Assembly: GCA_963771355.1 (NCBI GenBank)
Contig: CAVYTA010000006.1
Span: 480,001 to 544,000 of the forward strand
Direction of reading: 5' to 3'
Length of the DNA: 64,000 nt
Origin: an uncultured Candidatus Rokubacteria bacterium
GTDB lineage: Bacteria; Methylomirabilota; Methylomirabilia; Rokubacteriales; CSP1-6
Below are positions 21,092 to 28,284 of this stretch, in pieces. Position numbers and translations under genes: made by a program. The first letter of the stretch is position 1, and every line of letters starts with the position of its first letter. The notes below the pieces were generated by a model, which was given only the letters and a program-made list of their open reading frames with translations, was not told the DNA's origin and searched no databases.

Positions 21092-21604
21092 CTAGGCGGC
21101 GGCGCCGTGCTCATCCTCGCTGCGCAGGGGGATCCGCGTGCCGTCCACGACGAGGGTGGCGTCCCAGGTGACCTCGATGGCACCCTTGACGCTCTGGTGG
21201 GCGGGACATCCCTCGGGATGCAGCTGCAGCGCGCGCTCGGCTGCCTCGCGGGCTCCCGCCGGCACCGCAAGGTCGTAGTGGACGTGAATGGACTTGATGC
21301 GAATGGTCCGGCCGATGCCGACGATCCGTCCCTCCACCGTGGCCTTGTAGGACTCGCGATCGAACTCGACTTTGCGCCCTGCCAGGGCGCCGCGCAGGGT
21401 GCCGTACATTCAGCCGGCCACCGCGGCGACGATGTGGTCGAGCGTGGAGGCGATCGCCGGTCCCTCCTTCGCGCCGTAGTACTGCCGGAGCGCCCCCTGG
21501 ACGCCGTACACCACGGGCTCGGGCACCTCACCCAGATACGCGTTGCGGTAGCCGTCGCGGTACTCGAGTCGCGCCTTTGAGATGTACTCGAAATCGTCGG
21601 CCAT
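21092..21604 (-). CDS. OsmC-family redox protein, probable selenoprotein (in-frame TGA at 21410-21412)
   Basis: ORFs 21410..21604 and 21092..21409 are in frame and abut: ...HIVAAVAG-TGA-MYGTLRGAL...EGCPAHQSV; RBS GGAGGG at the upstream start only. Confidence 0.85.
21374..21390 (-). promoter_or_regulatory. Putative bacterial SECIS hairpin (OsmC gene)
   Basis: GCGCCC-TGGCA-GGGCGC, +20 to +36 after the TGA, G at +27. Confidence 0.6.
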
Positions 21605-23078: not shown

Positions 23079-24092
23079 ATGAGCTCGACGGCCTTGCGCG
23101 CGCCTGTTCAGAGCGCCAGCGAGACGGCCATCCCCGTCATCGACCTCGGCGCGTACCTCGCCGGCGCGCACGGCTCCCTCGAGGCGACGGCCTCGGCCCT
23201 CCGGAACGCCCTCGAAGGCATCGGGTTCTTCATCATCGTCAACCACCGCGTTCCGCGTGACCTGATCGCCCAGACGTTCGCCGAAGCGAAGCGTTTCCAC
23301 GACCAGCCGGTGGACGCGAAGATGGCGATTCGCATGAACGAGCACAACAACGGCTACATGGCGCTGGGCCGGTATGCCGTCTGGACGTCCGAGGTGAACG
23401 CCAATACCAAGCCCGACCTGAACGAGGCCTTCTTCGTGAAGCGGGAGCGGGCGCCGGGCGATCCGCTGCTGGAGTCGGGCCGGCGCTTCGTCGGGCCGAA
23501 TCTTTGGCCGGACGATCTGCCCGGATTTCGCGAGAATGTTCTGACGTACACCGCGGCGGTGGACGAGCTGGGGCGCCGCCTCCTGCCCGTCTGCGCCGTG
23601 GCGCTCGGCCTGCCGCCCGAGCGTTTCGACACGGCGTTTGCCGAGAGCCAGTTCTCGTTCCGGCTGTCACACTATCCGCCCGTCGAGGCGGACGCGAATC
23701 AATTCGGGATCGCGCCGCACACCGACGCCAATTTCCTCACGTTCCTCGCCCAGACGGAGATCCCGGGCCTTCAGGTGCGCACGCCGGCCGGCGCCTGGGT
23801 AGACGTGCCGTACGTCCCCGATTCGTTCGCGGTGAACTCGGGCGACATGATGTCCCGCTGGACGAACGGCCGCTTCAAGTCGACGCCGCATCGCGCCTTG
23901 CCGCCGATCGGAAGGCACCGCTACGCGATCCCGTTCTTCTTGGGACCGCACATCGACACGATCATCGAGTGCCTGCCCACCTGCCAGGGACCGGACACGC
24001 CGCCGAAGGATCCGCCGATCAGCTATGCGGACTATCTGAAGTGGTGGTACGACGCGAACTACGATGCGTCGCGCCAGCAAGACCGCTCCTGA
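23079..24092 (+). CDS. 2-oxoglutarate/Fe(II) dioxygenase, isopenicillin N synthase family
   Basis: IPVIDL, GFFIIVNH, HTD..H facial triad (PHTDANF, STPHR), RYAIPFF. Confidence 0.93.
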   Translation: MSSTALRAPVQSASETAIPVIDLGAYLAGAHGSLEATASALRNALEGIGFFIIVNHRVPRDLIAQTFAEAKRFHDQPVDAKMAIRMNEHNNGYMALGRYAVWTSEVNANTKPDLNEAFFVKRERAPGDPLLESGRRFVGPNLWPDDLPGFRENVLTYTAAVDELGRRLLPVCAVALGLPPERFDTAFAESQFSFRLSHYPPVEADANQFGIAPHTDANFLTFLAQTEIPGLQVRTPAGAWVDVPYVPDSFAVNSGDMMSRWTNGRFKSTPHRALPPIGRHRYAIPFFLGPHIDTIIECLPTCQGPDTPPKDPPISYADYLKWWYDANYDASRQQDRS

Positions 24093-24173
24093 CACCTCCC
24101 GCCGTTCGCGAGAAGCAGCGGTAAGAGCCAGGCGACGCTTCGTGTCGACGCGCTCAGGCGGGGCACCGTCGCT

Positions 24174-24701
24174 TCAGGGCTCGGCCAGCAATTGGCGGAT
24201 GAGCCGCTCCATCTCCGCGTAAGCCCCCTCGCCGATGTGCGTGTACCGGACGATGCCCTTCTTGTCCACGATCACGGCCGCCGGCCAGTACCGATTCCCG
24301 TAGCGCTTCCAGATCACGAAGTCGTTGTCCTGTACGACCGGATACGCCACGCCCAGCTCCTTCGTCGCGGCCACTACCTTGTCGTACGGCTTCTCCCAGA
24401 GAAACTCCGGCGCGTGAACCCCGACGATGGTCAGCCCTTTCGCGTTGTGCCGCGCGTGCCAGTCCCGCAACTGCGGGATCACGTTCTTGCAGTTGTATCA
24501 GCCGAAGGTCCAGAACTCGACGAAGACGACCCGTCCCCGGAGCTTGGTCATCGAGAGTGGCTCGCTGTTGATCCAGCGCTCGCCGGTGATTTCCGGTGCG
24601 GGTTCGCCGACTTTCAGGCTCGCCGGCTCGCTTTCTACTCCGGTGCCGAGCAGCATGACCGCGACCGAGAGCGTCACCCCCATCCCGCGTATCCACCGCA
24701 T
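24174..24701 (-). CDS. Exported TlpA/DipZ-like redoxin, probable selenoprotein with UxxC active site (TGA at 24498-24500)
   Basis: Joined reading: MRWIRG...GRVVFVEFWTFG-TGA-YNCKNVIPQL...VGVHAPEF...NRYWPA...HIGEGAY; RBS GGAGGA. Confidence 0.9.
24463..24478 (-). promoter_or_regulatory. Putative bacterial SECIS hairpin (redoxin gene)
   Basis: TCCCGC-AGTT-GCGGGA, +20 to +35 after the TGA, G at +27; possible lower CGTG/CACG stem. Confidence 0.65.
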
Positions 24702-24781
24702 GGCGTTCCTCCACGTCAGGTCTGGGTGTCCGCCATCGCGACGGAGGTACTCTCGCCCATGGTCACAAACCGCGAAGCAGT

Positions 24782-26011
24782 CTAGCCCCCGTCCAGCGGA
24801 TCGACGGCATCGGGCTCGATCCACTGAATCTCGGCGCCGGCGCCCTTGACGGCCGTTACCTCGACCTCCACCGCCAGCTCGGGTCGGGCGAGGCCGCTGA
24901 TGCGGCAGCCGAGCGACGCCGGATGGCTCTTCGCGAACGGCGTGGGGCCGTCGCCGTACGCTCGATTCTGCTTCGCGCCCTCGACCGTGAACGTCCGCCG
25001 GCGCACCACGTCGTCCATTGACGCGCCCGCCTGCTCGAGCGCCCAGCGACTGGTGTCGACCGCCAGGTCGTACTGGCGGGCCCAGTCGCCCGGCGCCTGC
25101 ACCTCACCGGTGGCCGACACCGACGTGCAGCCACTGACGTAGACTTGATCGCCCACGACGACGGCGCGCGCGTACCCTCGCGGCTTCTCCCGCATGTGCT
25201 GCGTGTAGATGTCGCGGCGCGAGCGCGCGGCCCCGAGCACGGCCTCGGCCTCGATCTCGACGAGCAGCTCCGGGCGGACCAGTGCCGGGACACCCAGCAG
25301 CGTGGAGACGGGACGCACGTCGCCGAGCACCTCGACGAACGCGCGCGTATAGTCCGCCGCCTTGCTGAGATCGGTGAGGAACGTCTTGGTGTAGACAAGG
25401 TCCCCGGGCACCCCGCCGGCGTCCGCGAGCGCCCGAAAGATGGTGTCCAGGGTCGTGCGCGTCTGGCGGTACATGTCGCCGACGCCTTCGACGCCGCGGG
25501 CGGTGAGCGCGGTCGAGCCCGAGATGAAGACGCGTTCACCGATCCGGACGGCTCGCGAGTACGCGTACACCGCCTCCAGCGGACCACCCGAGGAGATCCG
25601 CTGGGCGGACGTTCGCGCGCCGTCGATGGCGTCGAGCTCGATCTCGACGAGCTGGGTCGGGCGGGCCAGGCCGCTGACCTGCACCAGCGTGGCCGCCGGC
25701 CGCGCGTCACTGAAATGCCGTGCCACCGCGCGCGCCGCCGCGTCACTCACCGCGACGTCGGTGACGTAGATCCGGCTGCGGACCACGTCGTCGAGCCGCC
25801 CGCCCGCCTTGCCCATGCTCCACTCGGCGATGCGCATGATGGCGTCGACCTGGCGGGCGACATCGCCTTCGCCGCGGACGTTGCCTTGCCGGTCGATGGC
25901 GGTGGTGCCCGACTGCAGCACGGTGTCGCCGACCCGCAGCGCGCGCGAGTAGTGCGCGAGCGACTCCAGCGGGCGACCCGAGGCGACGTTTATCCGGCGA
26001 GCGGGTGTCAT
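24782..26011 (-). CDS. Rid (YjgF/RidA-family) protein with three tandem domains
   Basis: Three repeats of YSRA..VG..V..SG.T ... L.RP..LVEIE. Confidence 0.9.
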   Translation of the reverse strand: MTPARRINVASGRPLESLAHYSRALRVGDTVLQSGTTAIDRQGNVRGEGDVARQVDAIMRIAEWSMGKAGGRLDDVVRSRIYVTDVAVSDAAARAVARHFSDARPAATLVQVSGLARPTQLVEIELDAIDGARTSAQRISSGGPLEAVYAYSRAVRIGERVFISGSTALTARGVEGVGDMYRQTRTTLDTIFRALADAGGVPGDLVYTKTFLTDLSKAADYTRAFVEVLGDVRPVSTLLGVPALVRPELLVEIEAEAVLGAARSRRDIYTQHMREKPRGYARAVVVGDQVYVSGCTSVSATGEVQAPGDWARQYDLAVDTSRWALEQAGASMDDVVRRRTFTVEGAKQNRAYGDGPTPFAKSHPASLGCRISGLARPELAVEVEVTAVKGAGAEIQWIEPDAVDPLDGG

Positions 26012-26020
26012 GCGTGGACG

Positions 26021-26049
26021 ATGATGCGCCCGCCCCGGGGTCGCGTCAA
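26021..26049 (-). promoter_or_regulatory. sigma70-type promoter, very short leader
   Basis: TTGACG-17nt-CATCAT, 9 nt upstream of the ATG at 26011. Confidence 0.5.
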
Positions 26050-26173
26050 GGTGGGGCGGCGGGCGAGCAGGAAGGCGAGGATGGACACGCTCGAGGCAAT
26101 GACCCATGATCGGCCATACCGGCGCGCCGGTGCACTGGCAAGCCCGCATTCAAGCCAGAGAGGAGAGCTCGAG

Positions 26174-26250
26174 ATGACGGATCAGCCGCTTAGACTCTCT
26201 TCGTGGACGGCGGCATGACCCTCTATCCCGAGTTCGTGCGGGGAGGCTAG
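26174..26250 (+). pseudogene. Internally deleted glucose-1-dehydrogenase-like SDR remnant
   Basis: RBS AGGAG + ATG MTDQPL.. joined to a second frame TLFVDGGMTLYPEFVRGG-TAG, a typical Gdh-type SDR C-terminus. Confidence 0.7.
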
Positions 26251-26258
26251 TCTCTTCC

Positions 26259-28284
26259 ATGGTGATGCGCGCGGTCGACTTCGGCCGCGAGGTCTGTGGC
26301 CGGCTCGCCGCCGCCGAGGCGCGCGAGTGGCTCTGCGTGAACGGCATCGGCGGCTTCGCCTCCGGCACGGTGGCGGGGCTTCTCACCCGTCGGTACCACG
26401 GGCTGCTGGTGGCGGCCTTGCAGCCGCCCTTGGGCCGGACGGTGCTCGTCTCGCGGGTGGAGGAGACGACCGAGTACCGCGGCGTGCGCCGGGAGCTGCA
26501 CGTCAATCGCTGGGCGGACGGGACCCTCGGCCCGCAGGGGCATCACGAGATCGAGCGCTTCCACCTCGACGGCACCACCCCGGTGTGGAGCTATGCCCTG
26601 GCCGACGCGCTCCTCGAGAAGCGCATCTGGATGGAGCCGGGCGCCAATACCACCTACGTGGCCTATCGGACGGCGCGGGCCGCGGCTCCCGTGGCGCTGA
26701 CCGTCGCGGTGCACGTGAACTACCGGGACTATCACTCGACCACGCGCGGAGGACTGGTCGATGCGAATCGATCCCATTCCCGCGGGCGTGCGCGTGGAGG
26801 CCTTCGCGGGGGCGCGGCCCTTCGTGGTGCTGGCGCCGGGCGCGGCCGCCGAGCCGGCGGGGACCTGGCACTATCGCGGCGACCTGGCCCGCGAGCGCGC
26901 GCGCGGGCTCGACAGCCAGGAGGACACGCTCCACGCGGTGACGTTCCACCTGACGCTTCCCCCGGGTGCGACGGCGGTGCTGGTGTGCTCCGCCGAGGAG
27001 GCGCCCGACCTGGACGCGGAGGCCGCCTGGCGCCGGCGGCGGGCGCACGAGGCGGCGGTGCTCGAGGCCTGGCGCGCGGTCCGCCCGGCGGCGACGCCGG
27101 AGCCCGCATGGATCACCCAGCTCGTGCTCGGCGCCGACCAGTTCCTCGTCAGCCGGCCGGCCCTGGACGTGCCCGATGGGAAGTCGGTCATCGCAGGCTA
27201 CCCGTGGTTCGGCGACTGGGGGCGCGACACCATGATCGCGCTGCCCGGTCTCCTGCTCACCACGGGGCGCCCGGGGGCGGCCGCGTCCATCCTGCGCACG
27301 TTCGCGCGGCTCGTGGACCGCGGCATGCTCCCGAACCGCTTCCCGGACGCGGGCGAGGCGCCGGAGTACAACACCGTGGACGCCACCCTCTGGTACTTCG
27401 AGGCCATTCGCGCCTATGTGGCCGCGACCGGGGACGACGCGCTTCTCCGTGAGCTCTACCCCGTGCTCGAGGAGATCGTGGAGTGGCATCGCAAGGGCAC
27501 GCGCCACGGCATCGTGGTAGATCCCGACGACGGCTTGCTCCGGGCGGGGGAGCCCGGGGTCCAGCTCACGTGGATGGACGCGCGCGTGGGGGAGCGCGTG
27601 ATCACGCCGCGCACGGGCAAGCCGGTGGAGATCAACGCGCTCTGGTTCAATGCCCTGCGCGCCATGGGGTTCTTCTCACGGCGGCTGCGTCGGCCCGCGG
27701 CGCCGTGGGAGGAGGCCGCCGGTGAGGTGGCGCGATCGTTCAACCGTTTCTGGAACGCCGGCGCCGGCTGCTGCAAGGACGTCATCGACGGGCCGAGCGG
27801 CGATGACGCCGCGCTCCGGCCCAACCAGATCCTGGCCGTGTCGCTACCGGCCAGCCCGCTGCCGGTACCGCGGCAGCGGCAGGTGGTGGACGTCTGCGCC
27901 GCCGAGCTTCTCACCGACTTCGGGCTCCGCAGCCTCTCGCCGCGGGATCCGGCGTACCGGGGGCTCTATGCGGGCGGGCCGGCCGAGCGGGACGGCGTCT
28001 ATCACCAGGGCACCGCGTGGGGCTGGCTGCTCGGCGCATTTGTCATGGCTCACTTGCGCGTGCACGGTGACCGAGCCGCCGCGCGCGCCTTTCTCCTGCC
28101 GCTGGCGCATCACGTACCGGATGCGGGCCTCGGCAGCATCGCGGAGGTCTTCGACGGCGACGCCCCGTTCGAGCCGGGCGGCTGCCCGTTCCAGGCCTGG
28201 AGCGTCGCGGAGACGCTGCGCGCCTGGGCCGCCACCGAGCCCGAGCCGCCGCGCCCGCGGCCCGCGCGGCCGCGCGGGCGCTGA
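26259..28284 (+). CDS. Glycogen debranching enzyme / amylo-alpha-1,6-glucosidase (one frameshift near 26750)
   Basis: REWL..NGIGGFASG, TRRYHGLL in frame 1; IAGYPWFGDWGRDTMI, YNTVDATLW, TWMDA, YHQGTAWGW, QAWSVAE in frame 2. Confidence 0.9.

Follow-up and report, generated by a model that had tools for sequence, protein, structure and literature searches.

The locus lies on the minus strand of a 64,000-nucleotide stretch of DNA, the whole of which is called the window here. Translation from the ATG at 24701–24699 ran through 67 codons to an in-frame TGA (24500–24498, codon 68) and, on read-through, through 107 more to the terminal TGA (24176–24174), giving a product of 175 aa. The sequence around the internal TGA reads ...EFWTFG*YNCK..., i.e. 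FWTFG-U-YNC. A Shine-Dalgarno-like GGAGG was located at 24712–24708, 6 nt 5′ of the ATG. The original prediction had joined two open reading frames across this TGA into a 175-aa UxxC protein without naming a strand, and translation confirmed both the shared frame and the product on the minus strand. The plus-strand reading of the same coordinates was rejected, as it yields a shadow ORF. The features of the gene are as follows.

24708..24712, minus strand: Shine-Dalgarno-like GGAGG, from the sequence, 6 nt before the ATG
24174..24701, minus strand: CDS (175 aa) for a thioredoxin-fold protein of the DipZ type, with Sec68 of UxxC predicted
24630..24701, minus strand: predicted signal peptide, about residues 1–24, cleavage site uncertain, from hydropathy, low pLDDT and orthologue N-termini
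24498..24500, minus strand: in-frame TGA, predicted selenocysteine 68, at the attacking-Cys position
24489..24491, minus strand: Cys71, which completes UxxC and does not vary across the 90 aligned proteins
24456..24483, minus strand: SECIS hairpin, with a 6-bp upper stem (24478–24463) and the apical loop AGUU (24472–24469), 25 nt after the UGA
24282..24287, minus strand: Trp139-Pro140, where the cis-Pro loop of a thioredoxin fold would be expected, invariant, from the sequence alignment
24174..24482, minus strand: 102-aa fragment from standard callers, devoid of the signal peptide, U68 and C71

In the ORF list the gene appears as two entries, 24498..24824 (108 aa) and 24174..24482 (102 aa). 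Standard gene callers had been expected to report a truncated fragment, and indeed 29 of the best 120 database matches are 102-aa proteins that begin at the GTG after the TGA. In our reading, the two fragments are one gene, the internal TGA of which very likely encodes selenocysteine. The contigs of four public soil/rhizosphere DNA runs (contigs rather than raw reads, of which one listed contig, X1 record 4, spans codon 68 and extends beyond it by more than 31 bases either way) carried no alternative letter or indel at codon 68, and they rule out an assembly error there. Six RNA runs had 0.12–0.24 of the region's words in common, and a promoter and terminator scan of 23900–26400 returned nothing at the redoxin gene.

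Codon 68 was compared across homologues, namely 30 loci from 40 relatives and 80 loci from database searches (110 rows, or 101 distinct loci after removal of nine duplicates). It had been proposed that relatives should carry either Cys or a conserved TGA at this codon, with conservation on both sides, and this is what we observed: TGA in 50 loci, TGC in 37, TGT in 14 and no other codon, which argues that the TGA is not there by chance. Among the 40 relatives, 27 gave an orthologue-level match, 24 of them with one TGA and three with none. In a wider sample of the phylum, 128 of 201 genomes matched at E ≤ 1e-45; a TGA anywhere in the match, irrespective of its position, was found in 121 of the 128 (one also with TAA), and seven matches had no stop. 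All 19 matches from outside the host's own order contain TGA. Four unpublished genomes (G016, G088, G124 and G164) are among the 128, and G016 is among the 50 TGA loci; with these four removed, the figures become 117 of 124 matches with TGA and 49 of 49 TGA genes, and the conclusions are unchanged. Over all pairs of the 50 TGA genes, pN/pS was 0.18/0.51 upstream of the TGA and 0.21/0.49 downstream. Since pN is lower than pS on both sides, both halves are coding, and both are under purifying selection. The downstream part measures 106–114 codons in all 50 TGA genes.

Synonymous variation was low immediately 3′ of the TGA. The pS over codons 69–83 was just 0.18 (all pairs, 50 TGA genes). Leu78 is encoded by TTG in 47/47 TGA genes, compared with 28/504 for their other Leu codons, and Pro76 is CCG and Arg79 is CGG in all 50. 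The frozen codons fold into a hairpin 25 nt 3′ of the UGA, with the loop AGUU, or AGGU or GGUU in four genes. We applied a bSECIS rule that calls for G[G/U] at loop position 1–2, a distance of 16–37 nt after the UGA and a folding energy of ≤ −7.5 kcal/mol; the consensus behind it was taken from section 5 of PMC13188914. The hairpin of the gene itself (spacing of 25 nt, loop AGUU, 6 bp, −10.2 kcal/mol) falls within this rule, as do those of all 50 TGA genes, compared with 0/6 close Cys genes, 0/43 distant Cys genes, 0/2 paralogues and a background of 353/5000 random genomic TGAs. Two Cys genes retain the stem and have lost the G[G/U] loop. The 60-nt fold is unremarkable on its own (z = −1.32; 26/200 shuffles as good). 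The 28-nt hairpin was equalled by 4/200 shuffles, but this segment was picked after the hairpin had been seen, and the case for a SECIS element therefore rests on conservation. Over 24453–24526, exactly across the element, the metagenome contigs break and their summed depth spikes (up to 100 vs. 12 in X7), which is consistent with a stretch identical across many co-occurring relatives.

The closest named records of the host genome (5.5 Mb, 99.77% complete) are Rokubacteria / Methylomirabilota MAGs. As the prediction suggested they should be, selA, selB, selC and selD were all found in it, that is, the machinery of a SelB/bSECIS-dependent selenoprotein. The tRNA-Sec gene (selC, C7:111447–111544), selA (C7:113232) and selB (C7:114503) form a cluster at C7:111447–116386; selD, on C4, is a fusion with a Cys motif. 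The SelA, SelB and SelD proteins score above their cut-offs. In 6 of the 24 TGA-bearing relatives selB was unmatched. This lends some support to readings in which the TGA truly terminates translation (in a pseudogene, or between two small genes), encodes Trp under code 4 or results from a sequencing error, as does one database match (P0081) that reads W at the position of codon 68. However, four of the five selB-less genomes examined have another sel gene or tRNA-Sec above cut-off (tRNA-Sec in G018 and G028, selA in G021, and in G014 a selD with a TGA of its own), and the fifth, G002, which is 78% complete, has a partial selD only. Moreover, the same TGA recurs in 50 distinct loci of several families with both halves intact and constrained, the hairpin is tied to it, the host has selABCD, and TGA also serves as the normal terminator of the redoxin gene. 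We regard these readings as extremely improbable compared with selenocysteine.

A tree was calculated with codon 68 removed from 66 rows, i.e. all 56 close and 10 of the 43 distant sequences. The 56 close rows form one side of a branch with 100/99 support, and the six close Cys genes among them need five changes, at least three of which are forced by strong branches. These six genes are nested within the TGA group, and we read them as Sec-to-Cys reversions in a tree with a midpoint root only. Loss of the Sec machinery was rejected as the cause of the Cys forms, because all five of the Cys genomes searched (of six) keep at least one sel gene; G015 and G031 have selA and selB, G042 has selA, and G041 has selD. 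The 3 to 5 independent Sec/Cys changes in one clade amount to a natural experiment, in which the SECIS decays in each Cys gene and the sel genes stay. Separately, G040 (99% complete, Cys form) carries selA at C21:225523 and a TGA-bearing selD, with selB unmatched at E 1e-60. Three loci labelled Nitrosotalea, Dormiibacterota and Anaerolineaceae (L057, L059 and L062) nest in the Rokubacteria clade and have its kinase-regulator neighbourhood; they are likely misbinned or mislabelled contigs.

The protein matched AhpC-TSA (PF00578, 54.9 against a cut-off of 26; the best match), Redoxin (PF08534, 46.3 against 26.6) and Thioredoxin_8, all above the Pfam cut-offs. The PF08534 match together with UxxC places it among the Redoxin-family selenoproteins. 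No NCBIfam model attained its curated cut-off; the best was ResA (E 7e-17, score 61.9 vs. 170), and the ResA-like WAxxUGC (NF041054), DsbE, StoA and TlpA models scored 27.8/300, 29.2/123, 36.5/210 and 23/230, respectively. By sequence, the solved structure closest to it is that of the DipZ thioredoxin domain from M. tuberculosis (2hyx, E 1.9e-37), followed by those of SOQ1, NHLRC2 and YkuV. In the structure model, calculated with Cys at position 68 (pLDDT 90), (C/U)xxC stands at the start of the first helix of a thioredoxin fold, with helix 71–88 after the motif. The model superposed on the DipZ (Rv2874) domain (PDB 2hyx/5cyy) with a TM score of 0.79 at 39% identity. The DipZ SCINC corresponds to G-U-YNC, and GVH-P-E-F and YWP are common to both proteins. 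U68 is aligned with the first Cys of SCINC, in agreement with the earlier claim that Sec replaces the N-terminal, attacking Cys of a TlpA/DipZ-like motif. The invariant W139-P140 aligns with the YWP of DipZ at the level of sequence. Compared to full-length DipZ, the 175-aa redoxin stands alone, without the CcdA membrane domain and the C-terminal domain, and has Sec in place of Cys. By sequence and fold, it belongs to the same subfamily as the CCINC thioredoxin-like domains of SOQ1 and NHLRC2. Those are eukaryotic multidomain Cys proteins, whereas the redoxin, from a bacterium, consists of one domain and has no acceptor fused to it.

The N-terminus begins with two Arg, followed by a hydrophobic stretch with a Kyte-Doolittle 11-residue peak of 2.35 over residues 8–19, compared with ≤ 1.64 in the mature part, and it was modelled with low confidence. 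Sites resembling A-x-A are visible in the N-termini of many orthologues but are not clear in this copy. The first ~24 residues thus appear signal-peptide-like, as judged from charge, hydropathy and the orthologues.

The fusions and the neighbourhood point to a functional context. A CcdA domain is fused to 43 of the best 120 longer homologues and an MsrB domain to nine, so that the redoxin domain stands between an electron relay in the membrane and enzymes of oxidant repair; the five MsrB fusions inspected have an N-terminal hydrophobic stretch and CYNC. The host genome has ccdA and a DsbD-like gene. Within flanks of 1.5 or 3 kb, where kin share synteny and the counts are not independent, msrP or msrQ adjoins 19/50 TGA loci and 4/6 close Cys loci, a histidine kinase adjoins 34/50 TGA loci, and Met-rich exported proteins are encoded at 5/50 TGA loci and 14/43 distant Cys loci; the distant Cys genes, mostly from Nitrospira, have a Mo-oxidoreductase nearby in 25/43 cases. 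High-GC shadow ORFs dominated a first clustering of the neighbours, which was therefore repeated with a codon-bias filter and then with tblastn. All 13 MsrP-type neighbours scanned exceeded the MsrP cut-off, and one of two MXKDX matches exceeded its own.

The copy in the window lacks these neighbours: neither a kinase nor a Met-rich gene adjoins it, msrPQ lies elsewhere (C8:80688–82286), and a search for the linked kinase gave no orthologue above 43% identity. Next to it are a RidA-family gene with three domains and one for a 2OG-Fe(II) oxygenase. The former, upstream at 24782–26056 on the minus strand, encodes three RidA/L-PSP (PF01042) stretches in one protein and adjoins the redoxin gene in G002 too. 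Further along, in a glycogen-debranching (amylo-alpha-1,6-glucosidase) gene at 26259–28284 on the plus strand, an apparent frame change near 26760 divides GDE_N between two frames, which may reflect an assembly error or a pseudogene.

By eye and hydropathy, the two MsrA and one MsrB of the host have no signal peptide, and in the host and 20 relatives together a signal peptide was seen in 2/19 MsrB and 6/23 MsrA (three fragmentary MsrA left out). Exported MsrA or MsrB fused to, adjacent to or co-occurring with the redoxin was found in some relatives and Cys homologues but not in the host. As in PilB-type thioredoxin-Msr fusions, Cys homologues with 49–58% identity to the redoxin are fused to MsrB; unlike in those fusions, the redoxin in the window has no Msr partner, either fused or adjacent. 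The arrangement of the orthologues, next to msrPQ and Met-rich exported proteins, resembles the MrpX-YedYZ (MsrPQ) system of Azospira, in which, as described in PMC4436054, MrpX with YedY (MsrP) scavenges hypochlorite. The regulator differs, being a kinase/response-regulator pair beside the redoxin orthologues rather than SigF/NrsF. MsrP itself is reported to be fed by MsrQ and not by thioredoxin (PMC12525009). The related CCINC domain of SOQ1 is described as donating electrons to an Msr-active domain (bioRxiv 10.1101/2024.11.01.621559), and the domains of NHLRC2 and SOQ1 were reported inactive in the insulin assay (PMC6107167; bioRxiv 10.1101/2024.11.01.621559).

An exported selenoprotein with this fold could instead be a general ResA/CcmG-like reductant for the maturation of cytochrome c or cofactors, with no part in oxidant repair. 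The TlpA/ResA-type fold, the ResA model as the best NCBIfam match, the CcdA fusions and the cytochrome b and Mo-oxidoreductase genes that adjoin the Nitrospira Cys form all speak for such a role. We consider it unlikely, given that the ResA score is far below its cut-off, that a separate TlpA-like gene already adjoins ccdA (C6:1381606–1382662), and that the neighbour families include msrPQ but no cytochrome c maturation cluster.

It could also be argued that the protein scavenges oxidants directly, as a peroxide, hypochlorite or chloramine reductase or as a methionine-sulfoxide reductase itself, and is not an electron shuttle. The motif, UxxC, speaks against this: Prx selenoproteins have TxxU and GPx-like ones UxxT (PMC13188914, Table 1), and the protein contains neither. 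Cys versions have also repeatedly replaced Sec in genomes that retain sel genes, and the Msr activity of SOQ1 is reported to sit in another domain (bioRxiv 10.1101/2024.11.01.621559). Although the host has no exported MsrA/B to serve, AhpC-TSA is the best Pfam match, and the orthologues are linked to msrPQ and Met-rich proteins, which form a known hypochlorite-scavenging system (PMC4436054), we give direct scavenging little credence.

The reading we prefer is a 175-aa Sec68 redoxin of the DipZ type with a conserved SECIS, predicted to be exported and probably acting as a reductant in the repair of oxidised envelope proteins. Translation would almost certainly involve binding of the hairpin by SelB and delivery of Sec-tRNA, and export would very probably follow from the predicted signal peptide. 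In the periplasm, the Sec68 selenolate would be expected to attack a disulfide or an oxidised Cys of a partner, with Cys71 resolving the adduct to a selenenylsulfide that a CcdA/DsbD membrane relay re-reduces. The protein may well work within the oxidant-stress response of MsrPQ, acting on oxidised thiols and, in the relatives that have them, recycling exported MsrA/MsrB. The CcdA and MsrB fusions, the msrPQ, kinase and Met-rich neighbours and the analogies with Azospira and SOQ1 together suggest an exported selenol-thiol reductant, recharged by CcdA/DsbD, for oxidant repair in the envelope. By analogy with these neighbours and fusions, a CcdA/DsbD-recharged envelope reductant is likely, even though the copy in the window has left the msrPQ cluster.

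The window contains a second hidden selenoprotein gene 2.6 kb away, at 21092–21604 on the minus strand, where ORFs of 64 and 105 aa join via a TGA at 21412–21410. Joined, they encode an OsmC-like protein of 170 aa whose motif is UxxT, and a single TGA is present in each of the 12 matches from 21 genomes. Its hairpin is not significant on its own. In G006 and G009, the OsmC-like gene lies within ~1 kb of the redoxin gene. The OsmC-like UxxT proteins are an already catalogued selenoprotein family. A pattern scan of the host genome gave further bSECIS-like TGA candidates, UxxC redoxin-like and formate dehydrogenase genes, at C6:327814 (+), C6:1824098 (−), C6:2320178 (−), C5:421579 (+), C5:957959 (+), C4:311653 (+) and C7:2604 (+), together with obvious noise. 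Of the two formate dehydrogenase matches, one lies at the end of C4 and the other at the start of C7; they do not differ in the 60 bases displayed, so a single locus may have been assembled twice.

UxxC redoxin/TlpA-like selenoproteins are already catalogued, and the main effect of our analysis is a correction of annotation; it involves no new kind of recoding and no new fold. A 2026 review counts 119 prokaryotic selenoprotein families, including UxxC Redoxin (PF08534), thiol-disulfide isomerase-like (cd02966) and Prx-like (PF00578) proteins (PMC13188914), and it cites, from a groundwater study, a Methylomirabilota MAG in which 63 selenoprotein genes are predicted. The GOS study described comparable UxxC families of the Trx-like and Prx-like types (PMC2398784). 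By description rather than by sequence, the DipZ-like redoxin resembles the catalogued UxxC redoxins (PMC13188914, Table 1) in Pfam families, UxxC motif and bSECIS type; no NCBIfam model attains its cut-off for it. Among the papers listed in our literature search on selenoproteins of Rokubacteria/Methylomirabilota, DipZ, MsrPQ and periplasmic UxxC proteins, none dealt with the DipZ-like subfamily, and the part of PMC9751292 available to us holds nothing on a DipZ-like redoxin selenoprotein. The representatives of BSepDB (PMC13326102) may already include it.

A systematic annotation error is thereby corrected, for a gene that 128 of the 201 genomes sampled from the phylum contain, nearly always with TGA, and that is deposited as an inactive 102-aa half. 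The analysis also offers a functional context, envelope oxidant repair beside MsrPQ, for a class of bacterial selenoproteins with mostly unknown roles. More tentatively, a periplasmic selenoenzyme found throughout the class might serve Methylomirabilota as the branch for thiol repair in an oxidant-defence module made up of MsrPQ, Met-rich proteins and a two-component system, with reactive chlorine, peroxide or oxidised proteins of the envelope as direct targets of the Sec form. A directly acting Sec form is proposed because many Methylomirabilota, the host included, have no exported MsrA/B. If this were true, abundant soil bacteria would possess a selenoprotein with envelope repair as its dedicated task.
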